Shown here: positions 9,884 to 51,195 of the stretch, one piece after another | Position numbering within the stretch: position 1 is the first letter of the stretch | How the letters are laid out: each line of letters opens with the position of its first letter | Source of the DNA: Acidimicrobiales bacterium | GTDB lineage: Bacteria; Actinomycetota; Acidimicrobiia; Acidimicrobiales; VFJN01 | Direction: 5' to 3' | Length of the DNA stretch: 64,000 nt | Assembly (NCBI GenBank): GCA_035649475.1 | Contig: DASRJM010000164.1 | Span: 20,521-84,520, forward strand | Made by a program: the position numbers and the translations under genes | Notes under the pieces: generated by a model | What the model saw: only the letters and a program-made list of their open reading frames with translations | The model's database searches: none | Told to the model about the DNA's origin: nothing

Positions 9884-9910
9884 ACCTTGGCACCCCGGTG
9901 GCGCCGCGTC

Positions 9911-11383: not shown

Positions 11384-11393
11384 GGGCGCACCA

Positions 11394-13932: not shown

Positions 13933-14438
13933 CACGGCGCCTCCGGGGGCCGGTCGAGCGGCAGGACCCGCCCGGCCACCACCAGCAGGGCCCGGTCGGC
14001 GACCTCGGCCACGGCGCGGTTCAGCGAGCCGAGCGCGTCGGCGAAGCGCCGCCCCACCTCGGTCGGCGGGTGGACCCCCAGCCCGACCTCCTCCGACACG
14101 ACCACCGTGTCGCCGTTCCGTCCGGTCAGCGCCGCGCCCAGGGCGGCCGCGTCGGGGTCGAGACCCTCGTGGGACGCCACCCACGTGCCCAGCGAGTCGA
14201 CCAGCGCCGGCCCCGCCAGGGACCGGAGGCGGTCCGGCAGGTCCGGTCCCACCTCCAGCGTCGCCCACGCCGCCGGGCGCCGGGCCCGGTGGGCGGCGAT
14301 GCGGGCCCGCATGTCGGCGTCGACCGCCCGGCCGGTGGCCATGTAGGTGACCGCTTCACCGCCGGCGGCCGCCGCGGCCAGCCGTTCGGCGACCTCCGAC
14401 TTGCCCGAGCGCGTGCCTCCAAGCACGAGGGTGATCAC
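13932..14438 (-). CDS. cobU: bifunctional adenosylcobinamide kinase / adenosylcobinamide-phosphate guanylyltransferase
   Basis: 168 aa with the N-terminal P-loop MITLVLGGTRSGKSEVAE. First gene of the cob nucleotide-loop operon. Confidence 0.9.
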   Translation of the reverse strand: MITLVLGGTRSGKSEVAERLAAAAAGGEAVTYMATGRAVDADMRARIAAHRARRPAAWATLEVGPDLPDRLRSLAGPALVDSLGTWVASHEGLDPDAAALGAALTGRNGDTVVVSEEVGLGVHPPTEVGRRFADALGSLNRAVAEVADRALLVVAGRVLPLDRPPEAP

Positions 14439-14464
14439 GGCGACTGCCTACACTTCCGCCCGCC

Positions 14465-35893: not shown

Positions 35894-38682
35894 GCCGCGG
35901 CCCCCGCGGGCGAGGCGTCTGCCGGGAGCCCGACCGGCCGCCAGCCGCCGAACAGCTTGTGGTGGCCGTCCTTGAGGGCCAGCGCCGGCCGCTCGATCAC
36001 GACGTACGACACGGCCGCGGCCGCCACGCTGCCGGCCAGGGTGACCGCCAGCGCTGCCGGGAACGAGCCCGTGAAGATGGGCACGTCGAAGACGTCGCGG
36101 TAGATATCCGTCACCCCCTCGTGCCAGAGGTAGATGCCGTACGACACCACCCCCAGTGCCACCATCGGTCGGCTGCCCAGCCAGCGCAGGGACCGGGGCA
36201 GCGTGGCACCTGCCAGGGCCACCGGCAAGATGAGCAGGAAGCCGACGCCGCCGTAGAGCAGCTCCTTGACCACGCCCTGGGTCGCCTCGGTGGCGCCCAC
36301 CTCGAAGCCCAGCCCGAGCTGGGTCGAGACCGCCCAGAAGCAGGCACCCGCGCCCAGCCAGCACGCCAGCGGGTGGCGGCGGGGCCACTCCAGGATGCGC
36401 AGCGGGGCGTCGCGGCGGCGGGACCACTCGAGCGCCACCGCCAGTGCCATTCCCGGGACGAACAGGTGGAAGTTGGCGGGCAGCCAGTGGAGGCGGGGGT
36501 CGAAGGTGCCGAGCGAGACATCGTCGCCCGAGAGGCCGTGGAGCCAGTAGCGGAAGGCCAGGGCCCCCGCCGCCGCCAGCCCGAGGATGCCCAGCTCGGC
36601 GACCACGGCCCGGCGCGGGGCGAGCTTGCGCCACAGCCAGGCCCCGCCCGCCGCCCACAGCGGCAGGAGGATGTAGAAGGCCACCTCGTTGGTCAGCGTC
36701 CACGCCTGCTGGAGCCCGCCGAGGGCGGTCTCGGCCGAGTAGCTCTGCAGCAGGCCGTAGTAGGTGACGAAGTCGCCGAGGCTCTGGAAGTCGTTGCGGT
36801 CGCGCACGTCCAGGACCACGGCGAGCACGGTCAGGGCCAGCCAGTAGGCGGGGAAGATGCGCAGGAACCGGTTGCGCAGGTAGTCGCGGGTGCGGCCGGG
36901 CGACCGACCGTCCATCCGCCGGGCCACGAACGGGCGGTACAGCAGGAACCCCGACAGCACGAAGAACACCGCCACGCCCACGTCGAGGCGGGACAGGTAG
37001 TGGCCCCGGGGGTCACGCACGACGAACCCAACGTGCAGGGCGACGTGGGTGACCAGCACGCCGAGGGCGGCCAGGGCCCGCAGCCCGTCGAACCCGGCGA
37101 ACCGGCCCGAGGACGAGCCCAGGCCGCCGGGGACCTCGGACAGCGAGTCGCCGGCCGCGGGCGCCCCGGGCCCGGCGCCGCCACCGGCCGGGTCCTCGGC
37201 GGGTGACGCCGGGTGGCCGGGCTCCCCGGCCGCCCCCGGCTCGGGCGGGGGAGCGGGCTCCGGCTCGGGCGGGGGCTCGCCCCGGCGGTTGCGCCGCCAG
37301 GTGAGGACGGCCGCGTCGAGCGATACCGCGGCCGGGACCATCAGCGCCAGCTCGCCGGGCAGCCGGAACCGGGTGGTGCCGTACACGACCGCCACGGTCA
37401 CCACCACCGTGGCCACGATCACCACCAGCGGGAAGATGGGGCGGCGGGCGCGGCGCAGGCCGATCAGGCCGATGGCGCCCGCTACCGCCGTCGCGTACCA
37501 GACGAACAGGCCGGCCTGGCCGAGCACCGGCTCCTTCGACTCGACCTGGTGGTCGACGAAGATCTGCTCCTGGGGCTCGTAGAGGCCGAAGGTGCGGCCC
37601 ACCCGGGCCGCCACCACGTAGGGGACCCGCTCGGCGTGGTCGCGCGCGTACTGGCGGGCGATGCGGGCGAACCCCCGGCCCTGCGCGGAGGCATCGCCGT
37701 CGCCGACCAGGGGCTCGGCCTCCTGGATGCAGGACAGCGCCCAGTAGCCGACCCGGTCGTCGTAGTAGACCTCGTCGCAGTTGGCGGTTCCCAGCGTCTG
37801 GTCGAACTGGGCCGAGAGCGTGGTCGGCTCCTGGAACCGGGACATGTTGTACGCCACCCACGGCCCGATCACCACGGCGGCCACTAGGCCCGCCGCCCCG
37901 AGCTGCACGAGCCACCCGCGGGCGGGGGCGCGCTCCCCGGCCGCGTCGCGCCGGTAGCGCCACCACACCAGCGGGATCGCGATGGCCGGCCCCAGCAGGA
38001 TCGCCTCCGACCGCACCAGCGCGGCCACGCCGATCGTCGCCCCGAACAGCGCGGCGGCGGCCGCGCCCGGCCGGTCCCACCACCGGTAGGCCGCCAGCAG
38101 CACGAGCGCGGTGGTCGACACGACCAGCGTCTCGGACACCACCTGGGCGTCGAAGATGAACACGTTGGGGCTGAGCGCGGTCATCCCGGCCACGATCAGC
38201 CCGACCCGCTCGCCGGCGATGCGGCGGCCGGCCAGACCCATGGCCACGATGCCGAGCCCGCCGAGCACGCAGGTCACGACCTGGTGGGTCAGGAACGAGC
38301 GGAGGCCCAGCCACGAGAACCCGGCCAGGACCGTGAGGTAGCCGGGCGGGTGGTCGGCGCCCGGCATGCGCCGGCCCTCGAGCAGCCAGCGGAACGGGTG
38401 GATGTAGCCCTCGCCGTCGGCCAGCAGGTTGGCGCCGTGGTGGTAGTAGTACGGGTCGCCCAGCACCGTCCACGGGTTGCGCCACCCGAACAGGTACAGG
38501 AACCGCACCCCGAGCCCGGCGGCCACGATGACCCCCAGCCACAGGGCGAAGCGCCGGGGCCGGGACGGTCCGCCCGCGGGTGCGGCCTCCGGGCGCTCCT
38601 CGATGCGCCCGGCGACGTCCCCGGCGGCGGGCACGCCGTCGTCGGTGACGGTCGCGGTCGGCGGTGTCTCAGTGGATGTCAT
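35890..38682 (-). CDS. fusion protein: GT-C glycosyltransferase (ArnT/PMT_2, family 39-like) plus acyltransferase family 3 (AT3) domain
   Basis: ORF 35890..38919 trimmed to the ATG at 38682 (MTSTETPP). N-terminal GT-C motif (DPYYYHHGANLLADGEGY...HPPGYLTVLAG). Pro-rich linker EPPPEPEPAPPPEP. AT3 motifs FDGLRALAALGVLVTHV and RIFPAYW. No stop codon between the two modules. Confidence 0.75.
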   Translation of the reverse strand: MTSTETPPTATVTDDGVPAAGDVAGRIEERPEAAPAGGPSRPRRFALWLGVIVAAGLGVRFLYLFGWRNPWTVLGDPYYYHHGANLLADGEGYIHPFRWLLEGRRMPGADHPPGYLTVLAGFSWLGLRSFLTHQVVTCVLGGLGIVAMGLAGRRIAGERVGLIVAGMTALSPNVFIFDAQVVSETLVVSTTALVLLAAYRWWDRPGAAAAALFGATIGVAALVRSEAILLGPAIAIPLVWWRYRRDAAGERAPARGWLVQLGAAGLVAAVVIGPWVAYNMSRFQEPTTLSAQFDQTLGTANCDEVYYDDRVGYWALSCIQEAEPLVGDGDASAQGRGFARIARQYARDHAERVPYVVAARVGRTFGLYEPQEQIFVDHQVESKEPVLGQAGLFVWYATAVAGAIGLIGLRRARRPIFPLVVIVATVVVTVAVVYGTTRFRLPGELALMVPAAVSLDAAVLTWRRNRRGEPPPEPEPAPPPEPGAAGEPGHPASPAEDPAGGGAGPGAPAAGDSLSEVPGGLGSSSGRFAGFDGLRALAALGVLVTHVALHVGFVVRDPRGHYLSRLDVGVAVFFVLSGFLLYRPFVARRMDGRSPGRTRDYLRNRFLRIFPAYWLALTVLAVVLDVRDRNDFQSLGDFVTYYGLLQSYSAETALGGLQQAWTLTNEVAFYILLPLWAAGGAWLWRKLAPRRAVVAELGILGLAAAGALAFRYWLHGLSGDDVSLGTFDPRLHWLPANFHLFVPGMALAVALEWSRRRDAPLRILEWPRRHPLACWLGAGACFWAVSTQLGLGFEVGATEATQGVVKELLYGGVGFLLILPVALAGATLPRSLRWLGSRPMVALGVVSYGIYLWHEGVTDIYRDVFDVPIFTGSFPAALAVTLAGSVAAAAVSYVVIERPALALKDGHHKLFGGWRPVGLPADASPAGAAA

Positions 38683-38848
38683 CGGCGGTCGTCGACCGGC
38701 CCGCCCCCGCGACGGTCCGTCGTCGCGGCCGTCAGCCCCGGGCGGTCGGCCATCGCACGACACTAGTGGCGCGGGCCGCGGCCCCGAGGATTCCAGCCAC
38801 GGGGTGGTCAGGCGGCTCAGGGCGCTCGCCCCACTAGGGTGACCCGCC

Positions 38849-40240
38849 GTGCCCGACGCACTCCGTGACTGGGGGAGGCGAGTGCTGCCGCCGGTCCCGC
38901 CGCTGTCCCGCCGCGCCATGTGGTGGCTGGTGGCGATCGTGGCCGCCGGCGCGGTGCTGCGCCTGGCGTGGGCGACCCAGGCCGAGGAGCCCGTGGCGCT
39001 CCGCGACCCGTCGCTCTACCTCGTGCTCGCCGACCACGTGGCGGCCGGCGACGGCTACACCTACGGCGACGGCCCCGACCAGGGCCAGACCGCCTACTAC
39101 CCGCCCGGCTACCCGGTGGCCCTGGGCGCGGTGATCTGGCTGGTCCGACTCGTGCCCGGCGACTGGTCCGCCTTCGGCGTCGCGGTCGGGATGAACGTGG
39201 TGCTGTCGGTGGCGACGATCGGCCTGGTGTTCGCGCTCGCCCGCCGGCTGGCCGGCAACGCGGTGGGGCTGGTGGCCGCAGGCATCTGGGCCTTGTGGCC
39301 CAACCTCGTCTTCCACAGTGCGATCGTGCTGACCGAGACGCTCTTCCTGTTCCTGTTCGTGCTCCTGTTGCTGGTGGCGCTGGCGGACCCGGCGGTGGCG
39401 CGGGCGCCCGGCACGCGCCGGCTGGTGGCGATCGGCGTGTTGTTCGGCGCGTGCGCGCTCGTGCGCCCTGTGTCGCTGGTGGCCGCGCCGGCGTTCCTCG
39501 TCCTGTGGTGGGGGCCCGCGGTGCGGACCGTCCTGTGGCGGGGCGCGTTGGCGGGGCTGGCGGCCGTGGCCGTGATGGTGCCGTGGGCGGTGCGGTCGAC
39601 GCTGGTGATGGACGAGCCGGTGGCCCTGTCGCTCAACCTGGGAGACAACCTGTGCCTCGGCCACAACCCCGGCGCGTCCGGCGGCTTCGGCGACCTGGGC
39701 GAGCACTGCTTCACGGCGGAGGGCCTGCAGCGGCCCGAGTCCGAGACCCGGCGCCAGTCCGAGAACGTCGACCGGGCCCTGCGCTACATCCGCGACGAGC
39801 CGGGCACCACCCTGCGCCGCACCGTCACCAAGGCCCGCATCACGCTGGAGGACGACGCCGACGGCCTCGACGTGGCCGAGGACTTCGGCGCCCGGCGCAT
39901 CGTGTCCGGTGGCACCCGGGACACGCTGGAGCTGGCGGCCAACGCGTTCTACGCCGTCGTCGCCGTGGCGGGCATCGCCGGCGCGGTCATCCTCGTCCGC
40001 CGGACCGACCCCGGCCGCCGGGGCCTGTTCCTCGTCGTGGTGGGCCTCGCCCAGCTGGCGACGCCCCTGGCCACGTTCGGCGACCCGCGGTTCAAGATGC
40101 CGCTCTACCCGACGCTGGCCGTGGGCGCGGCCGTGGCGCTGGTGGCTGCCGCCGACCGCCTGCGGAGCCGACGTGCCGCCGGGGACGGCGGCTCAGCGCC
40201 GGGGGAGGATCGGGGCGTCCCGGCCCGTGCCGCGACCTGA
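38849..40240 (+). CDS. GT-C glycosyltransferase (ArnT/PMT_2, family 39-like)
   Basis: 463 aa. Paralogous to the N-terminal module of 35890..38682 (DPSLYLVLADHVAAGDGYTY...YYPPGYPVALG). Polytopic. An alternative start is at MWWLVAIV. Confidence 0.75.
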   Translation: MPDALRDWGRRVLPPVPPLSRRAMWWLVAIVAAGAVLRLAWATQAEEPVALRDPSLYLVLADHVAAGDGYTYGDGPDQGQTAYYPPGYPVALGAVIWLVRLVPGDWSAFGVAVGMNVVLSVATIGLVFALARRLAGNAVGLVAAGIWALWPNLVFHSAIVLTETLFLFLFVLLLLVALADPAVARAPGTRRLVAIGVLFGACALVRPVSLVAAPAFLVLWWGPAVRTVLWRGALAGLAAVAVMVPWAVRSTLVMDEPVALSLNLGDNLCLGHNPGASGGFGDLGEHCFTAEGLQRPESETRRQSENVDRALRYIRDEPGTTLRRTVTKARITLEDDADGLDVAEDFGARRIVSGGTRDTLELAANAFYAVVAVAGIAGAVILVRRTDPGRRGLFLVVVGLAQLATPLATFGDPRFKMPLYPTLAVGAAVALVAAADRLRSRRAAGDGGSAPGEDRGVPARAAT

Positions 40241-41731
40241 GGGTGTGGCCCCGGGGGCCGCCTCCTCGTGGTACTCCTCCTCGACGTTCACCGACCAGAT
40301 GTCGTGGTCGGCGCCGCTGATGATGTTCTCCACGGTCAGCATGGCGGTGTACATCGAGTGGTCCTGGTTGTTGTACCGGTGCATGCCGTTGCGCCCGATC
40401 GGGTGGATGTTGGGGACGTTGGCCTCCAGCCACTCCCGCAGCACGGCGACCCGCTCGGCGTAGCCCTCGTCGTAGACGGGGTAGGCCTTCGGCATCCGGA
40501 CCACGTAGCCGGCCTCGACGTCGGAGGCTTTGACCAGGCCCATCACCTCGAGCTCGGCCTTACCCTTCTCGACGAGCTCCTCGTCGGTGGCCGTCCACCA
40601 CTCGTCGCCTTCGACGACCGTGTACTCGAGCCCGAGCACGTTGCGGCCGTCGTGGACCATGTACGGCGACCACGAGCCGAAGTTCTGCACCCGCATGGTT
40701 TTCACCTCGGGCGCGTGGATGTAGATCCAGTTGTCGGTCCACGGCACCTTCTCGGCCGGCACGACGAGGGCCACCGACAGGAAGTCCCGGAAGTAGAGGT
40801 CGTCGGCCGCAGCCCGCACCTCGGGCGGGGGCGGCGGGTCCATGGCCTTGACCAGCAGCGGGTACGGCATCGAGGAGATCACGTGGTCGGCCGGGTACTC
40901 GGTGGTGAGGCCGTCGGACTCGACCACGACAGACACCGCCTTGCCGCCCTCACGGCGGATGCGGGTCACCGGGGCCTCCAAGATGACCTTGGTGCCGGCG
41001 GCCTCGACGAGCTCGCGGCAGCGCTCCCACATCATGCCGGGGCCGTACTTGGGGTACTGGAAGCGCTCGATGAGGCTGGTGACCTGCTTGGACTTGTCGC
41101 GGCGCCGCCCGGCCAGCCGGGCACGCACGGGTTCCCACACGGCGTCCCACAGCGACATGCCCTTGATGCGCTGGGCACCCCAGTCGGCGGAGATCTCGGA
41201 GGTGGGGACCGCCCACACCTTCTCGCTGTAGGTCTTGAAGAAGTGGCTGTAGAGCCGCCAGCCGTAGTTGGCGACCACGTAGTCCTCGAGGGACCTGATC
41301 TCCCGCGGCGGCCGCACCCGGATCCACAGGAACGACAGGCCGCAGCGCACCGCCTCGACCGGCCCGAGCGCGAGGACCGCCTTGAGCGGCTTGAGCGGGT
41401 AGTCGAAGAACCGGCCCTGGTAGTAGATGTGGCTCTCCCGGGGCCGGAGCATGAACTCGTCGTCGTCGAGGACCTCGTGCCAGAACTCCTCGACCCGCGG
41501 CACCTTGGTGAAGAACCGGTGGCCGCCGATGTCGAAGCGCCAGCCGTCCCGCTCGACCGTGCGGCTGATGCCGCCGACGACCGAGTCGCTCTCGAGCACC
41601 GTGCTGGTGACGCTCGCCTTGCCGAGCTCGTGGGCCGCGGTCAGCCCTGCGGGCCCGGCGCCGATGATCACGATGCTTCCGGGGCCCGCGTCCGGCGACG
41701 GTGACGGCGCGGTGATGTCGGACTCACTCAC
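40193..41731 (-). CDS. NAD(P)/FAD-dependent oxidoreductase (amine-oxidase / UDP-galactopyranose-mutase-like fold)
   Basis: 512 aa with the dinucleotide motif IVIIGAGPAGLTAAHEL and GGISRT...GGHRFF. Its 3' end overlaps the convergent GT-C gene by 48 nt. Confidence 0.8.
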   Translation of the reverse strand: MSESDITAPSPSPDAGPGSIVIIGAGPAGLTAAHELGKASVTSTVLESDSVVGGISRTVERDGWRFDIGGHRFFTKVPRVEEFWHEVLDDDEFMLRPRESHIYYQGRFFDYPLKPLKAVLALGPVEAVRCGLSFLWIRVRPPREIRSLEDYVVANYGWRLYSHFFKTYSEKVWAVPTSEISADWGAQRIKGMSLWDAVWEPVRARLAGRRRDKSKQVTSLIERFQYPKYGPGMMWERCRELVEAAGTKVILEAPVTRIRREGGKAVSVVVESDGLTTEYPADHVISSMPYPLLVKAMDPPPPPEVRAAADDLYFRDFLSVALVVPAEKVPWTDNWIYIHAPEVKTMRVQNFGSWSPYMVHDGRNVLGLEYTVVEGDEWWTATDEELVEKGKAELEVMGLVKASDVEAGYVVRMPKAYPVYDEGYAERVAVLREWLEANVPNIHPIGRNGMHRYNNQDHSMYTAMLTVENIISGADHDIWSVNVEEEYHEEAAPGATPSGRGTGRDAPILPRR

Positions 41732-41894
41732 GAGAGTCGCTCTCTCCCTCAGCGGTGCGGACGTGGAGGAGCCACTTTACCGACCGGGTGGCCGCGGGCT
41801 GCCACTTCGGGCGGCCGGGGGGCACGATCCGCCCGGGTCACCTTGCGCCGGGATGAAGGCCGCACGGCAGGGCCGTTGCTAGCATCGCCGCTTC

Positions 41895-43454
41895 ATGCGC
41901 ACCCTGGTCGACGGAGCCGTCGAGGACGACGCCGTAGTCGCCGAGGCCGGGCGGGCGCGGCGCCTCCCCGGCGGGGTGGCGCCCGTCGTGCTGGGCGGCA
42001 TCGTCGCGCTCGGGGTTGTGTTGCGGTTCGTCCAGCGTTCGCCGCTGTGGCTGGACGAGGCGCTCAGCGTCAACATCGCCGTGCTGCCGCCGGGGGATCT
42101 GCTCGACGCTCTCCGCCACGACGGCCACCCGCCTCTCTACTACCTGATCCTCCACTACTGGATGAAGGTGGTCGGCGAGGGCGACGTCGCCGTCCGGGCC
42201 CTGTCGGGGCTGTTCGCCGTGGCCGCGCTGCCGCTCGCGTGGGTGGCGGGGCGCCGGCTGGCCGGCGGTTCGGGCGCGCGCTGGGCCCTGATCGTGGTGG
42301 CGCTGTCCCCGTTCTGGGTCCGCTACGCCACCGAGACCCGCATGTACTCGCTGGTCATGCTGCTGGTGCTCGCGGGCTACCTGCTGATCGTCGACGCCCT
42401 CGAGCAGCCCCGGGCCTGGCGGCTCGTGGCGGCCGGGCTGATCAGCGGCGTGCTGTTGCTGACCCACTACTGGTCCATCTATCTGCTGGCCGCGGTGCTC
42501 GCGCTGCTGGCCGTGCGGTGGTGGCGCCAGCCCGCCGACCGGCCCTCGACGCTGCGGGTGGGCCTCGCGCTGATCGCGGGCTCGGTGCTGTTCCTGCCGT
42601 GGCTCGGTGGGTTCCTCTACCAGGCGGGCCACACCGGCACGCCCTGGGGCGAGCCGTTCCGGCCCACGGCCGTGTTGCAGACGACGCTGGGCGAGTTCGG
42701 CGGCGGCGAGGTGAGCGAGGCCGTGCTGTACGGGTCGGTGGCGCTGATCCTGGTCCTGGTCGCGCTGTTCACCATCTCCTCCGCCGACCACCAGTTGACC
42801 CTCGACCTGCGGACCGCGCCGGTCGTGCGGTGGGAACTGGCCGCCGTCGGCCTGGCCCTGCTGATCGGCTCGGCCGCCGGCTTCCTCACCAGCACCACCT
42901 ACCAGAGCCGCTATGCGGCGGTGGTGGCGCCGCTCGTGCTCCTGGCCGTGGCGGTCGGCATCACCCGGGTGCCGGGCGTGGGGCGCCTGCTGGTCGGCCT
43001 GGTGTACGTCGGCTTCTCGCTGGGCGGGATCATCTGGGTCAACTACTACCAGCGCACCCAGTCCGAGCTGGTGGGCGGCGCCGTCGCCGCCCGGGCCCAG
43101 CCGGGCGACGTGGTGGTGTACTGCCCGGACCAGCTCGGCCCCGCCTACTCCCGGGAGATGCCCGACGGGCTGGTCGAGCTGTCCTACCCCGCGCTGGCCT
43201 CGCCCGAGCGGGTCGACTGGGCCGACTACGCCGAGCGGAACGCAGCCGCCGACCCGGCCGCGATCGCCGAGGAGATCCTGGCGGAGGCCGACGGCCACGC
43301 CGTGTTCCTGGTGTGGGCGTCGGAGTACCGCACGTTCGGCAACCAGTGCGAGTCGCTGGTGGGGGCGCTCGGCCTGTCCGACACGCTGGTCGTCCAGGAC
43401 AAGAGCCGGTTCTTCGAGCCCGCCTTCGTGCACTGGCGGCCCGCGACGCCCTGA
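41895..43454 (+). CDS. GT-C mannosyltransferase-like protein (PMT_2 / family 39-like)
   Basis: 519 aa. WLDEALSVNIA...DGHPPLYYLILHYWMKV is the typical first-loop acidic motif of polyprenyl-phosphate-sugar-dependent GT-C enzymes. About 10 TM helices plus a C-terminal soluble domain. Confidence 0.8.
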   Translation: MRTLVDGAVEDDAVVAEAGRARRLPGGVAPVVLGGIVALGVVLRFVQRSPLWLDEALSVNIAVLPPGDLLDALRHDGHPPLYYLILHYWMKVVGEGDVAVRALSGLFAVAALPLAWVAGRRLAGGSGARWALIVVALSPFWVRYATETRMYSLVMLLVLAGYLLIVDALEQPRAWRLVAAGLISGVLLLTHYWSIYLLAAVLALLAVRWWRQPADRPSTLRVGLALIAGSVLFLPWLGGFLYQAGHTGTPWGEPFRPTAVLQTTLGEFGGGEVSEAVLYGSVALILVLVALFTISSADHQLTLDLRTAPVVRWELAAVGLALLIGSAAGFLTSTTYQSRYAAVVAPLVLLAVAVGITRVPGVGRLLVGLVYVGFSLGGIIWVNYYQRTQSELVGGAVAARAQPGDVVVYCPDQLGPAYSREMPDGLVELSYPALASPERVDWADYAERNAAADPAAIAEEILAEADGHAVFLVWASEYRTFGNQCESLVGALGLSDTLVVQDKSRFFEPAFVHWRPATP

Positions 43455-43466
43455 CCAGGCGCGATC

Positions 43467-43534
43467 CACAGGGCGTCGACAGGAAAGACACAGGGTTGCC
43501 CCCCTCGTTGCGCACAGGGTGGGCGCCGTAGGGT
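43467..43534 (+). repeat. three direct CACAGGG repeats followed by a -10-like TAGGGT
   Basis: CACAGGG at 43467, 43489 and 43513, spaced 22 and 24 nt. TAGGGT at 43529-43534, then 7 nt to the ATG at 43542. Confidence 0.4.
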
Positions 43535-43541
43535 CCCCCGC

Positions 43542-43766
43542 ATGCCGACGTTCGAGGTGATCCTGCGAGACCGGACCGTCGAGTCCGTCGACGGCGCCGA
43601 CGCCTACCAGCAAGAGGGCCCCATGACCACGTTCTTCCGCCGGGGCGACGGCCGCGACGTGATCGACTCGTGGAGCACACGCATGGCCAGCTTCCGCACG
43701 GCCGACCTCCTTGTCGTGCGCCGGGTCGACCCCGCGGTCCCCGCGCTGCGGGCGGTCGCCAACTGA
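43542..43766 (+). CDS. small hypothetical protein (74 aa)
   Basis: ATG 7 nt after the -10-like TAGGGT, so possibly leaderless. Non-repetitive, balanced composition (MPTFEVILRDRTVESVDGADAYQQEGPMTTFF...). No recognised motif. Confidence 0.4.
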   Translation: MPTFEVILRDRTVESVDGADAYQQEGPMTTFFRRGDGRDVIDSWSTRMASFRTADLLVVRRVDPAVPALRAVAN

Positions 43767-43794
43767 GCGCGTCGGCTGTGCCATCCTCGGGCCC

Positions 43795-43986
43795 GTGGCC
43801 GACCCCCTCACCTTCGCGTGCCCGCGGTGCGGGGCCGACGTGGCCGAGCGATACTACGGGCCCTGTGGGGCGTGCCGGGACCGGCTCCGGGCCGACCAGG
43901 CCCGGGAGGCACGCGCCGCCGAGGCGCAGGACTACGAGCCGAAGATGAACGTCACGCCCAACGCCGTGGCGTTGAAGGACGATTGA
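43795..43986 (+). CDS. small zinc-ribbon protein (63 aa)
   Basis: ORF 43711..43986 trimmed to the GTG at 43795 (VADPLTFACPRCGADVAERYYGPCGACRDRL). CxxC...CxxC, then a charged tail. Confidence 0.45.
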   Translation: MADPLTFACPRCGADVAERYYGPCGACRDRLRADQAREARAAEAQDYEPKMNVTPNAVALKDD

Positions 43987-44002
43987 CAAGGCCCGCGCCG
44001 CG

Positions 44003-44029
44003 TGTGACGGAACGGTGACGAACGTCACC
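44003..44029. promoter_or_regulatory. GTGACG half-site cluster including a perfect palindrome upstream of the CvnA-like gene
   Basis: GGTGACGAACGTCACC (44014-44029) is a 7+2+7 palindrome. A third GTGACG lies at 44004-44009. A -10-like TATGGT follows at 44041-44046. Confidence 0.3.
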
Positions 44030-44209
44030 TGGCCGCGAGCTATGGTCCGTGCTGAAATCTGCAATCCGTAACGGCCTGCGTTCGGGCGGCGAGAGTCAAT
44101 AAGGAAGGCAGCGCGAGGCCTTCCGCTCGACGCCCTCGATGTGGCCGTGGGAATGCTGGGGTCGGGGGCCGGGGCTGGGCTCCGACGTGGAGAGAAAACG
44201 GAGCCGCAG

Positions 44210-46627
44210 GTGGTCCGCCGCATACCGATCCGCGCCAAGGTCGCTGGCGCGCTCACCGTTCCGTTGCTCGCGCTGGGGGTCATCGCCGGCATCGGCGCGT
44301 CGACCAACGCCCGCACCGCCTCCCGGGTCATGCGGCAGTCCGACATGGCCACCGCCTCGATCGGCCACGCCGGGCTCATCAGCGCCCTCCAGACCGAGCG
44401 CAACCTGGCCGTCCTCGACATGTTCGCGCTCAGCGGCCGCCTCGAGCTGGAGGCGCCCGACGCGGCCACCGCCCGCACCCAGACCGACGCCGCGGTCACC
44501 GCCCTGCACCACGAGATCGGCGGGCAGGACGACACGCTGCGCGACGACTACGCCCGGGCGCTCGACGGCCTGCGCCGGCTCGACGACGTCCGGGACGCCA
44601 TCGACGGGGTGCAGGGCGTGGGACCGGCGGCCGCCCGCCAGACCGGCCACGACGCGTTCCGCGCCTACACGGAGATGATCCAGATGCTGTTCGCGTCCCA
44701 CGACCGGTTCTCCCTGGTCGTGGACAACGCCGCGCTGCGCCAGGGCGACGACCTCGTGCACTACTCGTCGCACGCCTCGGACTCGAGCGCCCAGCTGGTC
44801 GAGATGCTGCTGTTCCTCGGCAGCAGCCCCGGCGGCATCGACGAGCCGACCGAGGCGGCCCGGGTCGCCGAGCTGGCCCGGGACGTCGAGCGCCACGACG
44901 GCGTGATCCGCACCAAGGGCACCGGCATCTACGCCGACGCCGCGGCCGGGCTGTTCGCCAACCCCCGGCTCGCCGGGCTGGCCGACTACACCGGCCGGGC
45001 CATCCGCACCGGCCAGGTCGACCCCGACACGCTGCTGTCCACCGCCCCGCTCGGTCCCGAGGGCGGCTACCCGGCGTTCCGGGACCGGGTCGTCGATGTG
45101 CTCGACGCCGAGGCCGCCCAGCTCGGCGCGGCGGCGGACCGGCGCCGGCAGTGGTACGTGGCCGCCGCGCTCGGCGCCCTGGGGACGGCCGTGATGATCG
45201 CCTGGCTGGTCAGCCGGTCCATCACCCGGCCGCTGCGCCGCCTCAGCGAGGACGCCGGGGCCATGGCCAGCTACCGCCTGCCCGCCGCCGTGCAGGACAT
45301 TCTCGACGCACCCGAGGGCCAGGACATCCAGGTCCCGGAGTCCCGGCCCATCCCGACGCGGGCGCGGGACGAAGTCGGCGACGTCGCCCGGTCCCTCAAC
45401 GAGGTGCACAGCTCCGCGCTGCGGCTGGCCGTCGAGCAGGCGGCGCTGCGCCGCAATGTCGCCGAGTCCTACGTCCACCTGGGGCGCCGCAACCAGAACC
45501 TGCTGAGCCGGCTGCTCGACTCGGTCGGCGAGCTGGAGGCGACCGAGCACGACCCCGACCGGCTGGACCAGCTGTTCAAGCTGGAGCACCTGGCCACCCG
45601 CATCCGCCGCAACGCCGAGTCGCTGCTGGTGCTGTCCGAGCCGGTGCCGCCGGCCCGCTGGCAGCCGCCCGTGCAGGTGGCGGACGTGCTCCGGGCCGCC
45701 CTCGGCGAGATCGAGAACTACGAGCGGGTCGTGGTCCGCACGCTGGAGCCGTCGATGGTGCGGGGCGGCTCGTCGGCCGACCTCGCCCACCTGCTGGCCG
45801 AGCTGATCGAGAACGGGCTGCGCCACTCGCCACCCCGGGAGCTGGTCGAGGTCAGCGGCCGGGTCGGTGCCGCCGGCTACACGCTCTCGATCGTCGACCA
45901 CGGCCTGGGCATGACGCCCGACGACCTGGCGCGGGCCAACCAGCGCCTGGCCGGCGCCGAGTCGTTCACGGTCACGCCGGCCCGCTACCTCGGCCACTAC
46001 GTGTCCGCGGTGCTGGCCGCCCGCCACGGCATCGACGTGAAGCTGACCGGGTCGGTGGTGGTCGGCATCACCGCCCGGGTGGTACTCCCGGTGTCGATCC
46101 TGACCGACCACGCCGAGCACCCCGCGGCGGCGCCGCGCATCCCCGACCCGCGCCGGGTGCCGGAGGACAGCGTGTGGGCCGACGACGACCCGGGCGGCGA
46201 GCGGCCGTCGGCCGAGGACGTGCGGGCCGCCGTCGTGCTCCTCCGCACCCGCAGCAGCACCCCGCCCAAGCCGCCGGTGCTGGTGCCGGCCCTTCCCGGC
46301 GCGGCGGTGACCCGGTCCACCACGGTCGTGCCCCGCCACTGGCCGGCCCGCTCCGAGCGCGACCGCCACGCCGCGGCACCGTCCTCCGCCGCCGTGGCCG
46401 CGCCCGGCAGCCACCGTCCCGCCGAGCCCCGGCCCCGCGACGCGGCCGACCCGGCCGGGCGGACCGCCAGCGGCCTGATCCGCCGGGTGCCCCGCCCGCG
46501 TCCCCCGGGCGCGGATCGCAGCGCCGAGCCGCGGCCCGAGGTGGAGCAGTTCCTCGCCAGCCTGGCCGGGCGCAAGCCACCCGGGCGCGACGGCACGGAC
46601 GGGGGGTCCGCCCGGCGGAGGAGATGA
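44210..46627 (+). CDS. CvnA-like sensor histidine-kinase-like membrane protein (NIT sensor, HAMP, HATPase_c, Pro/Arg-rich tail)
   Basis: ORF 44141..46627. Preferred start is the GTG at 44210, 7 nt after GGAG. N-terminal TM plus NIT-like region (GLISALQTERNLAV). Second TM plus HAMP (ITRPLRRLSEDA). ATPase motifs ELIENGLRHSPP and IVDHGLGM. A Roadblock gene follows immediately. Confidence 0.8.
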   Translation: MVRRIPIRAKVAGALTVPLLALGVIAGIGASTNARTASRVMRQSDMATASIGHAGLISALQTERNLAVLDMFALSGRLELEAPDAATARTQTDAAVTALHHEIGGQDDTLRDDYARALDGLRRLDDVRDAIDGVQGVGPAAARQTGHDAFRAYTEMIQMLFASHDRFSLVVDNAALRQGDDLVHYSSHASDSSAQLVEMLLFLGSSPGGIDEPTEAARVAELARDVERHDGVIRTKGTGIYADAAAGLFANPRLAGLADYTGRAIRTGQVDPDTLLSTAPLGPEGGYPAFRDRVVDVLDAEAAQLGAAADRRRQWYVAAALGALGTAVMIAWLVSRSITRPLRRLSEDAGAMASYRLPAAVQDILDAPEGQDIQVPESRPIPTRARDEVGDVARSLNEVHSSALRLAVEQAALRRNVAESYVHLGRRNQNLLSRLLDSVGELEATEHDPDRLDQLFKLEHLATRIRRNAESLLVLSEPVPPARWQPPVQVADVLRAALGEIENYERVVVRTLEPSMVRGGSSADLAHLLAELIENGLRHSPPRELVEVSGRVGAAGYTLSIVDHGLGMTPDDLARANQRLAGAESFTVTPARYLGHYVSAVLAARHGIDVKLTGSVVVGITARVVLPVSILTDHAEHPAAAPRIPDPRRVPEDSVWADDDPGGERPSAEDVRAAVVLLRTRSSTPPKPPVLVPALPGAAVTRSTTVVPRHWPARSERDRHAAAPSSAAVAAPGSHRPAEPRPRDAADPAGRTASGLIRRVPRPRPPGADRSAEPRPEVEQFLASLAGRKPPGRDGTDGGSARRRR

Positions 46628-46630
46628 CCG

Positions 46631-47050
46631 ATGCCGACGGACGAGGCCCGGAACTTCAACTGGCTGCTGAGCAGCTTCGTCGACGAGACGGCCGGCGTGA
46701 CCGACGCCATGGCGGTCTCGTCGGACGGGCTGCTGATCGCCGCTTCGACCACCCCCGGCGGCCCTGGGAGCGACGAGCTGTGCGCCATCATCGCCGGGTC
46801 GACCAGCCTGGCCGCCGCGGCCAGCGCGGCGGTCGACGGCGGCGGCGTCGACCGGGTCGTCGTGGCCATGGCCCGGGGCTTCCTGTTCGTCAGCGCCATC
46901 GCCGACGGCAGCTGCCTTGGCGTCGTCGCCAGCCGGGACTGCGACGTCAGCTCGGTCGGCTACCAGACCACCGATCTCGTCGACCGGGCGGGGGCGCTGC
47001 TCACGCCCGCGCTGCGCGAGGAATTGAAGCAGAGCGCCGCGGGCAGTTGA
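46631..47050 (+). CDS. Roadblock/LC7 (MglB/CvnB-like) domain protein
   Basis: 139 aa. NFNWLLSSFVDETAGVTDAMAVSSDGLLIA...GFLFVSAI matches the CvnB-type Roadblock pattern. Starts 3 nt after the sensor stop. Confidence 0.85.
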   Translation: MPTDEARNFNWLLSSFVDETAGVTDAMAVSSDGLLIAASTTPGGPGSDELCAIIAGSTSLAAAASAAVDGGGVDRVVVAMARGFLFVSAIADGSCLGVVASRDCDVSSVGYQTTDLVDRAGALLTPALREELKQSAAGS

Positions 47051-47075
47051 GCCGTGCAGGGTCTACCGTGAGGGC

Positions 47076-48185
47076 GTGACCGACGTCGCACCGGCGACGT
47101 ATCCCACGCGCTACTGGCACCACCTGGACGACGGCCGAGTCCAGTGCGACGTGTGCCCGCGGGCCTGCAAGATGCGGCCGGGCCAGCGGGGGCTGTGCTT
47201 CGTCCGCGGACGCCCCGAGGAGGGGACCGCGGAGGACGGCGTGGCGCTGCTCACCTATGGGCGGTCCTCGGGCTACTGCATCGATCCGGTGGAGAAGAAG
47301 CCGCTCAACCACTTCCTTCCGGGAACGTCGGTGCTGTCGTTCGGGACGGCGGGCTGCAACCTGGCCTGCCGGTTCTGCCAGAACTGGGACATCTCCAAGT
47401 CCAAGGAGATGGACACCCTGGCCGACGCCGCCTCCCCCGAGGGGATCGCGGCCGCGGCCCGGCGGCTCGGCTGCGCCAGCGTGGCCTTCACCTACAACGA
47501 CCCGACGATCTTCCTGGAGTACGCGGCCGACGTGGCCGACGCCTGCCACGAGGTGGGGGTGAAGGCCATCGCGGTCACGGCCGGCTACATCTGCCCGGAG
47601 CCCCGGGCAGACTTCTACGCCCACCTCGACGCCCTGAACGTCGACCTCAAGGGGTTCACCGAGGAGTTCTACAAGCGGGTCTGCATCGGGCACCTCGAGC
47701 CGGTACTGGAGACGCTGGAGTACCTGCGCCACGAGACGGACCTGTGGTTCGAGATCACCACGCTGCTGATCCCCGGGCACAACGACGGCGACGCCGAGCT
47801 CGACGAGCTGACCGCGTGGATCGCCGAGCACCTGGGCCCGGACGTGCCTCTGCATTTCACCGCGTTCCACCCGGACTTCAAGATGATGGACGTCGAGCGG
47901 ACACCGCCGGCCACGCTGACCCGGGCCCGGGAGTGGGGGCTGCGCAACGGGCTGCGCTACGTCTACACCGGCAACGTCCACGACCGGGCCGGGTCCAGCA
48001 CCTGGTGCCCGGGGTGCGGGGCGCTGCTGATGGAGCGGGACTGGTACGAGCTGGGCGCGTGGGGGCTCACGGACGACGGGCGCTGCACCGGCTGCGGCTG
48101 GCAGGTGCCCGGGCGGTTCGCGGGCCCGCCGGGCCGATGGGGGCGGCGGCGGGCGCCGGTGCGGCTGGCGGTCCAGAGCCGGTGA
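47076..48185 (+). CDS. amrS: AmmeMemoRadiSam system radical SAM enzyme
   Basis: 369 aa. N-terminal Cys cluster CDVCPRAC. Radical-SAM motif GCNLACRFCQNWD. C-terminal zinc-ribbon-like CPGCG...CTGCG. An AmrB/AmrA gene follows. Confidence 0.9.
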   Translation: MTDVAPATYPTRYWHHLDDGRVQCDVCPRACKMRPGQRGLCFVRGRPEEGTAEDGVALLTYGRSSGYCIDPVEKKPLNHFLPGTSVLSFGTAGCNLACRFCQNWDISKSKEMDTLADAASPEGIAAAARRLGCASVAFTYNDPTIFLEYAADVADACHEVGVKAIAVTAGYICPEPRADFYAHLDALNVDLKGFTEEFYKRVCIGHLEPVLETLEYLRHETDLWFEITTLLIPGHNDGDAELDELTAWIAEHLGPDVPLHFTAFHPDFKMMDVERTPPATLTRAREWGLRNGLRYVYTGNVHDRAGSSTWCPGCGALLMERDWYELGAWGLTDDGRCTGCGWQVPGRFAGPPGRWGRRRAPVRLAVQSR

Positions 48186-48212
48186 CGGGACCGGACGGGC
48201 AGGCGGGGTGAG

Positions 48213-49592
48213 GTGGACGGCGCCCGCGGGTTCGGGACCTGGGTGCGTAGCCCGGCCGTGGCCGGGGTGTTCTACCCGGGCGACGCGGGCGCGTTGCGGG
48301 ACACGGTGGCCGGCCACGTGGCCGCCGCACCCGAGCCGCCTGACGGCGACGCCCCCAAGGCGGTGATCGCGCCCCACGCCGGTTACCGCTACTCGGGCCC
48401 GACTGCCGGGGCGGCGTACCGGGCGGTGGCGGCCCGGCGGGGCGAGGTGACCCGGGTCGTGGTGGCGGGCCCGGCCCACCGGGTGGCGCTGCCGGCGGTG
48501 GGCGTGAGCACGGCCCGCGCCTGGGAGACCCCGGCCGGCGAGTTCGCGGTGGACGTCGACGCCTGCCAGGCGCTGGTCGACGAGGGTCTGGCGGTGCCGG
48601 CCGACGACGCCCACCGGCCGGAGCACAGCATCGAGGTCCACCTGCCGTTCGTGGCCTCCGTCCTCGGGGACGTGGCGCTGGTGCCCCTGATCGTCGGCCG
48701 CTGCCCGCCGGCCGCGGCGGCCGAGGCGCTGGGCCGGATGTGGGGCGGCAACGAGACGCTGGTGGTGGTGTCGTCGGACATGAGCCACTACCTCGACGAC
48801 GCCGCGGCCCGGGCCCGGGACGGGCGGACCCGCAGGGCGATCCTGGAGGGCCGGGCGGCGGACATCGGGCCGTACGACGCCTGCGGTTGCGTCCCGGTGG
48901 CCGCGCTGATGCTGGCGGCCCGGGAGCGTGCCGTGGTCCCATCGACCCTGGCGGTGGCGACCTCGGCGGACGCGTCGGGCGACGCGAGCCGGGTGGTCGG
49001 CTACGCCAGCTTCGGCTTCGCCGCCCCCGGGCCGCTCGGCCCCGCCGACCGGGCGTGGCTGCTCGCCCGGGCCCGCGCTGCGGTGGCCTACGAGCTGGAG
49101 TCGGGCCAGGCCGACCCGCTGGACGACGAGGACGTCCCGGAGCGGGTGCTGCTCCCGGGCGCGTCGTTCGTCACCCTGGAGGTGGACGGCGAGCTGGTCG
49201 GCTGCATCGGCTCCCTCGAGGCCCAGCGCCCGCTGTGGCGGGACGTCGCCCGCAACGCCCGAGGCGCCGCGTTCGCGGACCCGCGCTTCCCCCCGCTGAC
49301 GGGCGACGACCTGGCCCGCACGACGATCAAGGTCTCGGTCCTCTCGGCCCTGGCCCCGCTCCCACCCGGCCACGACGACCTGGTCGACGAGCTCCGCCCG
49401 GGGGTGGACGGCGTCCTCCTGGAGGCCAGCGGCCACCGCGGCACGTTCCTCCCTGCGGTCTGGGACAAGCTCCCGACCCCGGAGGACTTCGTCGACCGCC
49501 TGGTCGGCAAAGCCGGCCTCCCTCCGGAGTCCTGGCCCCGGGACGCCCAGGTCTGGCGCTACACCACCGACGAGTTCGCCGACCTCACGTGA
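48213..49592 (+). CDS. fused AmmeMemoRadiSam system protein B (MEMO1-like) and protein A (AMMECR1-like)
   Basis: 459 aa. N-terminal Memo motifs AGVFYPGD, VIAPHAGYRYSG and SSDMSHY. C-terminal AMMECR1 motifs GASFVTL, LVGCIGS and HRGTFLPAVW. Confidence 0.85.
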   Translation: MDGARGFGTWVRSPAVAGVFYPGDAGALRDTVAGHVAAAPEPPDGDAPKAVIAPHAGYRYSGPTAGAAYRAVAARRGEVTRVVVAGPAHRVALPAVGVSTARAWETPAGEFAVDVDACQALVDEGLAVPADDAHRPEHSIEVHLPFVASVLGDVALVPLIVGRCPPAAAAEALGRMWGGNETLVVVSSDMSHYLDDAAARARDGRTRRAILEGRAADIGPYDACGCVPVAALMLAARERAVVPSTLAVATSADASGDASRVVGYASFGFAAPGPLGPADRAWLLARARAAVAYELESGQADPLDDEDVPERVLLPGASFVTLEVDGELVGCIGSLEAQRPLWRDVARNARGAAFADPRFPPLTGDDLARTTIKVSVLSALAPLPPGHDDLVDELRPGVDGVLLEASGHRGTFLPAVWDKLPTPEDFVDRLVGKAGLPPESWPRDAQVWRYTTDEFADLT

Positions 49593-51195
49593 CGACCGCG
49601 CGGGCCCACGTGTAGTCGGGCTTGCCGGCGGGGGAGCGGACGACCTCGGCGACCCAGTGGAAGGACTTGGGGACCTTGTAGCCGGCCAGCGCCTCACGGC
49701 AGTGGAGGCGAAGCTCGTCGTCCGTCGGGCGGGCGACGCCCCCGCGGGCCGAGAGGACGGCGACCACCTCGTTGCCCCAGCGGTCGCTCGGGCGGCCGAC
49801 CACGACCGCATCGGCGACGGACGGGTGCGAGGTCAGGGCCTGCTCGACCTCCTCCGCGAAGACCTTCTCGCCGCCGGTGTTGATCGTGGCCGAGTCGCGG
49901 CCCAGCAGGTCGAGGGCGCCGTCGGGGCGCAGCTTCACCCGGTCGCCCGCGACCGAGTGGCGGATACCGTCGATGACCGGGAACGTAGCGGCCGTCTTGA
50001 CCTGGTCGCCGAGGTAGCCCAGGGGGACCCGGCCGGCCTGGGCCAGCCAGCCGACCTCCGTCTCGCCCGGGGTCAGGACCCTCGTGCGGTCGTCCGACAG
50101 GACCACCGTCGTGCGCTCCGGGCGGAACGCCCCGTCGCCGCCGGCCACCGCCTGGCGGCCGGCCTCGGACGAGCCCAGCACGTCCACGATGCGGATCTCC
50201 GGCAGCGCGTCCCGCAGGCGCTGCTTCACCGGCGGCGACAGGACCGCCCCGCCCGAGAGCAGGAACCGCAGCGACGAGACGTCGTAGGCGCCCGGTTGGG
50301 CGTCGAGCTCGTCGAGCAACGGGCGGGCGAACGGGTCGCCGACGATCTGGAGCGACGTCACCCGCTCTCGCGCGCACACCGCCAGCACGTCCGCCGCGTC
50401 GAAGCGGGTCGGGTCGTCCTGCACCACCACCGTGCCGCCCGACGTCCACGCCGACAGGGCGTTCCAGTGGGCGGCGCCGTGCATGAACGGGGCCGACGGC
50501 AGGACCCGCAGCGCGGAACGGTCGACGGCCGCCTCGACGAGCGCGGACACCGGCCCGGCCACGCCGAGGGCCGTCGCGAGGAAGTCGCCCTGGCGCCACA
50601 GCGTGCCCTTGGGCATCCCCGTCGTCCCGCCCGTGTACAGCACGTAGCGGTCGTCTGGCGACAGCCCCACCGGCGGGACGGGGGCCGCCGACGCGAGCGC
50701 GTTCTCGTAGGGCACGGCGCCCGGGAGCAGCGCGGCTCCGGAGCCGTCGTCGACCTGGAGCAGCAGGACCACCTCGGGCAGGTCGCCCAGCACCGAGGCG
50801 AGTGTGGGCGCGAACGCGCCGTGGTAGATCACCGCCCGGGCGCCGCTGTCGGCCAAGACGTAGCGCAGCTCTGCGGCGACGTACCGGTAGTTGACGTTGA
50901 CCGATGCCGCCCGGGCCTTCCAGGCGCCGATCATGCCCTCCAGGTACTCGTGCCCGTTGTGGAGGTACAGGGCGACGTGGTCGTGCGGCGACTCCCACGG
51001 CGCCGCCGCCGCCGGGTCGCGGCGCAGGCCCAGCCCGGCCCGGGCCAGGACGGCGGCGAGCCGGCGGGTGCGGTCGGTGGTCTCGGCCCAGGTCCTGGTC
51101 ACGTCCCCGGCGACGAGGCAGGGCCGGTCGGGGACGGCGGCGGCGACCGCCTCGTGGAGGGCGGCGGCGTTGTGGTCGCCCGGATCGCCGGTCAC
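49585..51195 (-). CDS. acyl-CoA synthetase (AMP-dependent ligase, FadD3-like)
   Basis: 536 aa with the AMP-binding motif YTGGTTGMPKG and C-terminal GEKV...LAGYKVPK. Confidence 0.85.
   Translation of the reverse strand: MTGDPGDHNAAALHEAVAAAVPDRPCLVAGDVTRTWAETTDRTRRLAAVLARAGLGLRRDPAAAAPWESPHDHVALYLHNGHEYLEGMIGAWKARAASVNVNYRYVAAELRYVLADSGARAVIYHGAFAPTLASVLGDLPEVVLLLQVDDGSGAALLPGAVPYENALASAAPVPPVGLSPDDRYVLYTGGTTGMPKGTLWRQGDFLATALGVAGPVSALVEAAVDRSALRVLPSAPFMHGAAHWNALSAWTSGGTVVVQDDPTRFDAADVLAVCARERVTSLQIVGDPFARPLLDELDAQPGAYDVSSLRFLLSGGAVLSPPVKQRLRDALPEIRIVDVLGSSEAGRQAVAGGDGAFRPERTTVVLSDDRTRVLTPGETEVGWLAQAGRVPLGYLGDQVKTAATFPVIDGIRHSVAGDRVKLRPDGALDLLGRDSATINTGGEKVFAEEVEQALTSHPSVADAVVVGRPSDRWGNEVVAVLSARGGVARPTDDELRLHCREALAGYKVPKSFHWVAEVVRSPAGKPDYTWARAVVT

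Follow-up and report, generated by a model that had tools for sequence, protein, structure and literature searches.

A conservon-type cvnA-cvnB pair without an adjacent GTPase gene lies beside an AmmeMemoRadiSam operon in one Acidimicrobiales lineage, probably as a separate unit

Within a stretch of 64,000 nucleotides (nt) from an Acidimicrobiales bacterium (assembly GCA_035649475.1, contig DASRJM010000164.1, positions 20,521 to 84,520; hereafter the window), we analysed a locus in which genes for a CvnA-like membrane sensor and a CvnB-like Roadblock/LC7 protein are followed directly by amrS and a fused amrB-amrA gene (amrBA), the components of an AmmeMemoRadiSam system. The window has a GC content of about 75%, and the nearest relatives of its genes are found in Acidimicrobiales metagenome-assembled genomes (MAGs). 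According to an earlier note on this DNA, four genes lie here on the same strand, separated by gaps of 3, 25 and 27 nt; this layout was borne out by the coordinates, by the domain matches and by the GC content at third codon positions (GC3), which reaches 0.95-0.96 in the named frames and marks the four consecutive plus-strand genes (44072-49592) as coding (Table 1). Two small open reading frames (ORFs) precede them, and the gene 5' of the whole locus encodes a PMT_2 glycosyltransferase. Since a convergent AMP-binding gene overlaps the amrBA stop codon, the cluster ends after amrBA without a further same-strand gene.

Table 1. Features of the cvnA-cvnB/amrS-amrBA locus, with coordinates in the window
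Feature	Coordinates	Strand	Basis
Small conserved ORF, 74 aa	43542..43766	+	Translation; no Pfam match; predicted leaderless start
Four-cysteine zinc-ribbon-like ORF, 63 aa, CPRCG...CGAC	43795..43986	+	Translation; no Pfam family
cvnA-like membrane sensor, 805 aa	44210..46627	+	Pfam HAMP and HATPase_c; conservon CvnA profile, 772 bits
cvnB-like Roadblock/LC7, 139 aa	46631..47050	+	Pfam Robl_LC7, E=5e-16
-10-like hexamer TACCGT (TANNNT)	47064..47069	+	Predicted promoter; 6 nt before the amrS GTG
amrS, radical SAM enzyme, 369 aa, CNLACRFC	47076..48185	+	TIGR04337; Pfam Radical_SAM
Fused amrB (MEMO-like)-amrA (AMMECR1-like), 459 aa	48213..49592	+	TIGR04336, TIGR04335; Pfam Memo, AMMECR1
AMP-binding (acyl-CoA synthetase-like) gene, convergent	49585..51195	-	Overlaps the amrBA stop by 8 nt

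The start of the CvnA-like gene was placed at the GTG at 44210, where GGAG lies 6 nt upstream and the alignments of orthologues begin, and an independent gene call gives a product of 805 residues. This product had been described as an 806-residue NIT/HAMP/HATPase_c protein; the start, HAMP and HATPase_c stand, the length is 805 residues plus the stop codon, and NIT, which gave no Pfam match in the protein itself even at E<=1, is present in the precomputed matches for the window product and in its orthologues. The translation is ordered as a transmembrane segment, a NIT-like periplasmic domain, a second transmembrane segment, HAMP, a histidine-kinase-like ATPase in which an H-box-like EHLATR, an N-box and DxGxG motifs can be seen, and a Pro/Ala-rich C-terminal extension with the sequence GLIRRVP. 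Its match to a profile iterated from the CvnA of a complete conservon covers the full length of the protein. The C-terminal motif GL[IV]RRVP is common to the window protein and complete conservons: in the Acidimicrobiales clade sharing the arrangement of the window the C-terminus reads RTxSGL[VI]RRV[PR], and in complete conservons of the outgroup GLTRRVPG, LTQRVPG or LSRRVPG. A C-terminal LPxR feature has been reported for conservon kinases (PMC4316618). The clade retains the arginine and the RVP part of this LPxR-type motif, and the proline position varies in the outgroups too.

Aligned end to end with canonical CvnB proteins of relatives that are 45-51% identical to it, the Roadblock protein shares every one of their invariant columns (17/17). 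The Shine-Dalgarno (SD) sequence GGAGGAG lies inside the 3' end of cvnA, ahead of the Roadblock start and across the 3-nt gap, and the cvnB-like gene appears to be translationally coupled to cvnA.

Like the conservons (cvnA-cvnB-cvnC-cvnD; cvn1-13 of Streptomyces and mfp of Mycobacterium), the locus has a CvnA-type sensor with an LxRRVP tail followed by a tightly coupled CvnB gene; unlike them, it has no CvnC or CvnD gene adjacent or within about 82 kb, and two small conserved ORFs accompany the pair. Profiles iterated from a bona fide conservon were run on the six-frame ORFs of the 64-kb window, and neither DUF742 (CvnC, PF05331) nor a CvnD-type GTPase (PF03029) gave a match there. Precomputed Pfam calls contained no DUF742 or GTPase in the flanks (8.4 kb on the left and 9.6 kb on the right), and the sequence covered in this way amounts to the 82 kb mentioned above. 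The sole small P-loop ORF that a motif scan returned in the window (13932-14447) was considered as a CvnD candidate and rejected, being CobU. Among the loci compared with the window, which are designated by L numbers, L081 lies on a 3.3-Mb contig; no GTPase or second Roadblock was among the matches listed for this contig, the lists being filled by closer sequences.

The gene context of related Roadblock proteins was compared in 80 metagenome loci, obtained with the relatives from a representative search (45-51% identity); 39 of these loci have at least 1200 nt of downstream sequence. Directly after the Roadblock gene, DUF742 and ATP_bind_1 GTPase genes follow in 35/39 of these outgroup loci, and a NIT/HAMP/HATPase_c kinase gene lies 5' of it in all loci whose upstream sequence reaches far enough to show it. 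Outgroup Roadblocks at 45-57% identity sit in complete cvnABCD units; the nearest outgroup (L160, L162 and L164, 57% identity) also has the GTPase, and two genomes of this nearest-outgroup type carry textbook cvnABCD units. Other outgroup loci with only the A and B genes are L115 and L138-L140, in which the genes downstream are unrelated. The view that the pair is a truncated conservon without DUF742 or GTPase genes thus agrees with what was found: none of these genes occurs in about 82 kb, the nearest outgroup Roadblocks belong to cvnABCD units, and the characteristic motifs are kept. Judged from sequence, the identification of cvnA-cvnB as a conservon-type pair without adjacent cvnC and cvnD is supported.

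Similar situations have been documented. Conservon-flanked orphan MglB genes without a GTPase gene were described and attributed to loss of the GTPase gene, and no orphan MglB has been characterised experimentally (PMC4316618). The window locus resembles these orphan actinobacterial MglB/CvnB genes (Wuichet and Sogaard-Andersen, 2014; PMC4316618) in having a Roadblock/MglB gene beside a conservon kinase gene and no Group 2 MglA GTPase gene; it differs in that an entire Acidimicrobiales clade stably has only the A and B genes, and in that cvnC is missing too. The relation to the MglA/MglB polarity module of Myxococcus is a distant one, limited to the Roadblock fold family of CvnB; in contrast to that module, the window locus has no MglA-type GTPase gene nearby, and its context is that of a sensor kinase.

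A second CvnA-like kinase, solo and 903 residues long, is encoded about 18 kb away, to the right of the window at about 65.1-67.8 kb in window coordinates and on the minus strand (L167:5794-8505). Its HAMP-kinase region is 57% identical to that of the window CvnA, and its C-terminal tail is similar; the gene lies between DUF2203 and aldehyde dehydrogenase genes, and no Roadblock, DUF742 or GTPase gene is nearby.

The second half of the locus had been read as a complete AmmeMemoRadiSam system with fused AmrB and AmrA, and this reading held, all three components scoring above the curated cutoffs. AmrS reaches 625 bits with TIGR04337 (cutoff 220) and has the CxxxCxxC motif as CNLACRFC; the AmrB part (residues 12-267) reaches 236.5 bits with TIGR04336 (cutoff 26; Pfam Memo, E=1.4e-47), and the AmrA part (residues 283-455) 174.9 bits with TIGR04335 (cutoff 99; Pfam AMMECR1, E=3.4e-40). 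AmrS is related to glycyl-radical activases. As in other AmmeMemoRadiSam systems (TIGR04335, TIGR04336, TIGR04337), the three components are adjacent, with amrS followed by amrB/amrA as in many genomes; the differences are that AmrB-AmrA forms one 459-residue protein here, as it does in several relatives, and that cvnA-cvnB lies upstream in this clade alone. A 2019 study by Burroughs et al. in the Journal of Biological Chemistry (JBC) reportedly found Memo in AMMECR1 and radical-SAM contexts and suggested a modification of bases or isoprenoids.

Two further observations concern AmrS itself. Its identity is 65-87% across Acidimicrobiales, Chloroflexota, Proteobacteria, Acidobacteriota (Thermoanaerobaculia), Nitrospirota and others, and such values across phyla point to either very strong constraint or horizontal transfer. 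Moreover, one MAG (GCA_050744525.1, JBOGHG01) has two AmrS copies, one linked to cvnA/cvnB (L174) and one not (L004). The latter locus lacks cvnA/cvnB, has only a 26-residue AmrB-like fragment after AmrS and retains a -10 element, TAGCGT; this AmrS copy is either a recent duplicate or a bin contamination.

Regarding transcription, a scan of 43300-49900 with consensus sigma-70 and terminator models returned no promoter and no plus-strand terminator. The TTGACA/TATAAT model is unsuited to an actinobacterium of 75% GC, and for this reason TANNNT hexamers at leaderless spacing were examined instead; in Actinobacteria, leaderless mRNAs are typically recognised by a -10 hexamer TANNNT a few bases before the start codon, at which transcription also begins. 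No usable SD sequence precedes amrS, and TACCGT lies 6 nt before its GTG; amrBA is preceded by the SD-like sequence GGGGTGAGG. A TANNNT hexamer was found 6-7 nt upstream of the amrS GTG in the window and in L001-L005, L007 and L081-L084, including the two loci in which amrS is not linked to cvnA-cvnB (L004 and L007), and it occurs at amrS also in several more distant loci of Actinomycetota and Chloroflexota. Apart from this element, the spacers between cvnB and amrS, 25 to about 140 nt long, cannot be aligned.

The complete pattern, TANNNT-N6/7-[AG]TG, is expected by chance at about 9e-5 per position and occurs 11 times in 128 kb (both strands of the window); because its occurrences are so few and at least seven of them fall at gene starts, it was taken as a real signal in this genome. 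The window gene starts carrying it are 7301, 43542, 47076, 52014, 52545, 54249 and 56777, and the data suggest that a sizeable share of the genes of this organism may be leaderless. Since the hexamer stands at leaderless spacing before amrS and is conserved there, an independent leaderless amrS-amrBA transcript can be proposed, and amrS-amrBA is predicted to have a promoter of its own also in the unlinked locus L007. When the cvnB-amrS spacers of six loci were folded, none was more stable than its shuffles. The earlier note had named an independent promoter and terminator between cvnB and amrS as grounds against a coupling of the two halves; of these, the promoter is represented by a conserved -10-like element, judged from sequence, and no terminator was found.

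The two small ORFs upstream belong to the same lineage. In all relatives, the 74-aa ORF precedes the cvnA-cvnB pair; it has the start pattern TAGGGT, 7 nt, ATG, and its identity is 84-97% in L001, L002, L003, L005, L007, L081 and L082, and 70% in L169. It is far more conserved than its neighbours, reaching 97% in L001 and L002, against about 65% for CvnA in these two loci. Its orientation is inverted in L003, L005, L007, L081 and L082, and it accompanies cvnA-cvnB in L169. The zinc-ribbon-like ORF lies directly 5' of cvnA in the clade and in L169, or directly 5' of amrS in L007, and its product has a conserved C-terminal YEPKMNVTPNAVA motif. The two ORFs were considered as general partners of AmrS and rejected as such, being confined to this lineage.

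The distribution of the cvnAB-amrS adjacency was surveyed in 80 species-level AmrS loci, 68 of them informative, that is, with at least 700 nt of upstream sequence. CvnA and Roadblock genes lie upstream of amrS in 4/68 informative loci (L001, L002, L003 and L005), and these loci, all from Acidimicrobiales, make up all but one of the five closest relatives. A Roadblock profile hidden Markov model built from the clade detected no Roadblock in the other AmrS loci of the set of 80. Conversely, all Roadblock homologues with 67-91% identity come from Acidimicrobiales, and the order of the four genes is kept in L081-L084 and L171-L174. The earlier note had placed amrS and amrBA in the slots of cvnC and cvnD, as the possible output or target of the sensor, and had proposed a survey of gene neighbourhoods; the survey places the adjacency in one Acidimicrobiales clade only, and with 4/68 loci, and the arrangement broken in L007 and L169, that reading is not supported.

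The flanks of the linked loci are conserved as well, with PMT_2, amine oxidase and PMT_2 genes upstream, and AMP-binding, thioesterase, peptidyl-prolyl isomerase and MDMPI-like genes downstream. Because these flanking genes are equally conserved, the conservation of the adjacency within the clade is no greater than the background synteny.

Breaks in the arrangement were placed by simple neighbour-joining trees of AmrS, CvnA and Roadblock. In the AmrS tree, L007 branches as sister of the linked clade. Its flanks are those of the linked loci, and both small ORFs and amrS-amrBA are present; cvnA and cvnB are absent, and an ATP-dependent DNA ligase gene lies on the opposite strand between the two small ORFs. 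L169 and L170 carry cvnA and the Roadblock gene, preceded by the small ORF and the zinc-ribbon ORF, in a different neighbourhood; convergent CopD-like and amidohydrolase genes come next, amrS does not adjoin the Roadblock gene, and cvnC and cvnD are missing. Both the CvnA tree and the Roadblock tree place L169 within the linked clade, and the link to amrS was therefore lost secondarily there, cvnA-cvnB being kept. Across the clade loci and L007, the cvnB-amrS junction is broken twice, and the cvnA-cvnB and amrS-amrBA junctions never. Further, in sister genomes with a complete conservon, this lies 2.5 Mb (L175 vs L011) or 0.27 Mb (L176 vs L019) from amrS.

With the integration of these findings, we consider it probable that the locus consists of two autonomous units, cvnA-cvnB and amrS-amrBA, which are neighbours through the history of the lineage and do not form one signalling pathway. 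The first unit would be cvnA-cvnB with the two small ORFs 5' of it, a conservon derivative that lost, or was parted from, cvnC and cvnD. Its CvnA-like protein would presumably sense an extracytoplasmic signal by the NIT-like domain and relay it via HAMP to the kinase-like ATPase, and the Roadblock protein presumably binds CvnA, as family knowledge suggests; CvnB9 of Streptomyces reportedly binds CvnA. Since the C-terminal motif of CvnA and the invariant residues of CvnB are kept, the pair would most likely act on a distal CvnD-type GTPase or on another partner. The second unit would be an ordinary, complete AmmeMemoRadiSam operon, most likely transcribed as a leaderless mRNA from its own -10 element, with amrBA translated from the internal SD sequence and AmrS presumably acting together with the MEMO-like and AMMECR1-like domains. 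The adjacency would have arisen once, in one Acidimicrobiales lineage and inside a syntenic block, and would persist largely by inheritance rather than through AmrS/AmrBA being the output of the sensor.

Several observations weigh against a separation into two units. The four genes lie on the same strand, and the cvnB-amrS gap of the window is only 25 nt; the adjacency persists at 52-73% CvnA identity and 68-77% Roadblock identity; since no terminator or unusually stable hairpin was found, read-through from cvnB into amrS is possible; and the case for an amrS promoter of its own is one of sequence conservation only. A link between the GTPase-less CvnA/CvnB pair and AmrS/AmrBA retains a small probability.

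The first unit may belong to a split conservon, with cvnC and cvnD, or a complete second conservon, elsewhere in the genome and the CvnA/CvnB pair working with that distal GTPase just as standard actinobacterial G-protein systems do. We hold this tentatively, as a possibility with appreciable weight; it is compatible with two separate units as the explanation of the amrS adjacency, and refines how the cvnA-cvnB unit works. The retained GL[IV]RRVP motif of CvnA, the full set of invariant CvnB columns in the Roadblock protein and the full length of cvnA and cvnB across the clade are in its favour. So is the second, solo CvnA-like kinase about 18 kb away, from which it follows that conservon parts are dispersed in this genome, and so are the single copies of conservon genes reported in Acidimicrobiales (PMC13015309). 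However, no DUF742 or ATP_bind_1 gene occurs in the roughly 82 kb covered, and neither a GTPase nor a second Roadblock was among the matches listed for the 3.3-Mb contig of L081, with the limit given above that closer sequences fill those lists.

It is improbable that the four genes form one operon in which the sensor module was rewired, AmrS/AmrBA being its output or target in place of CvnC/CvnD and the Roadblock protein acting on them. The shared strand and the gaps of 3, 25 and 27 nt would fit such an operon, as would the lack of a detected terminator, the absence of an adjacent GTPase for the CvnA/CvnB pair to act on, and an adjacency retained in at least nine distinct loci of one clade despite substantial divergence. 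Nevertheless, the adjacency is absent in 64/68 informative AmrS loci, and L007 and L169 split the two halves exactly at the cvnB-amrS junction; the amrS -10 element is conserved in the unlinked L007 too, and the cvnB-amrS spacer ranges in length from 25 to about 140 nt. With a wider neighbourhood that is just as syntenic, the conserved adjacency has little extra weight, and the other A-B-only remnants (L115 and L138-L140) are followed by unrelated genes.

It is likewise hardly to be expected that a GTPase-less CvnA/CvnB pair was co-opted to control the AmmeMemoRadiSam system, for example by a Roadblock dimer docking on the MEMO-like domain or by read-through from a signal-regulated cvnA promoter, which would raise amrS-amrBA expression. 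It is very improbable that cvnA and cvnB remained without function after the deletion of a conservon and are decaying into pseudogenes. The presumed output GTPase and the DUF742 gene were lost, and L007 is without the whole pair; yet the ORFs are intact with a GC3 of 0.95-0.96, every clade member has both genes conserved at full length, they were retained after translocation in L169, the H-box-like EHLATR, the N-box and DxGxG are visible, and the SD coupling is preserved.

Other features of the surroundings were recorded. Upstream of the locus, at 35890-43454, three PMT_2-type glycosyltransferase genes, one of them fused to Acyl_transf_3, are interleaved with a flavin amine oxidase gene, and the synteny of this cluster 5' of the locus extends over the whole clade and L007. 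On the contig that also carries L001, two additional genes, ABATE/zf-CGNR and MOSC, separate the PMT_2 gene from the small ORF (L171:1699-2897), indicating local gene flux around an otherwise syntenic block. Elsewhere in the window, the region 9900-13900 has the maximum GC content (80-81%), with overlapping high-GC3 frames on both strands and no clean gene call.

In the literature searched, no connection of AmmeMemoRadiSam, AMMECR1 or Memo with Roadblock or conservon genes was found, and the cvnAB-amrS adjacency is therefore probably unreported. The families of both components are known, conservon remnants lacking the GTPase had been described before, and the adjacency is, on the comparisons made here, a lineage-restricted juxtaposition. 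Tight same-strand spacing within a syntenic block is weak evidence of a functional link, and caution is due when it is read as one. If the coupling were true, it would give a first physiological handle on, and a first regulatory input for, the functionally orphan AmmeMemoRadiSam system, and by extension MEMO1 and AMMECR1, and it would be a case of a Roadblock protein acting without a small GTPase. For the Acidimicrobiia, amrS is predicted to be leaderless with a promoter of its own, and the stable A-B-only conservon derivative across an Acidimicrobiales clade bears on whether CvnA and CvnB work with a distal GTPase or with none.

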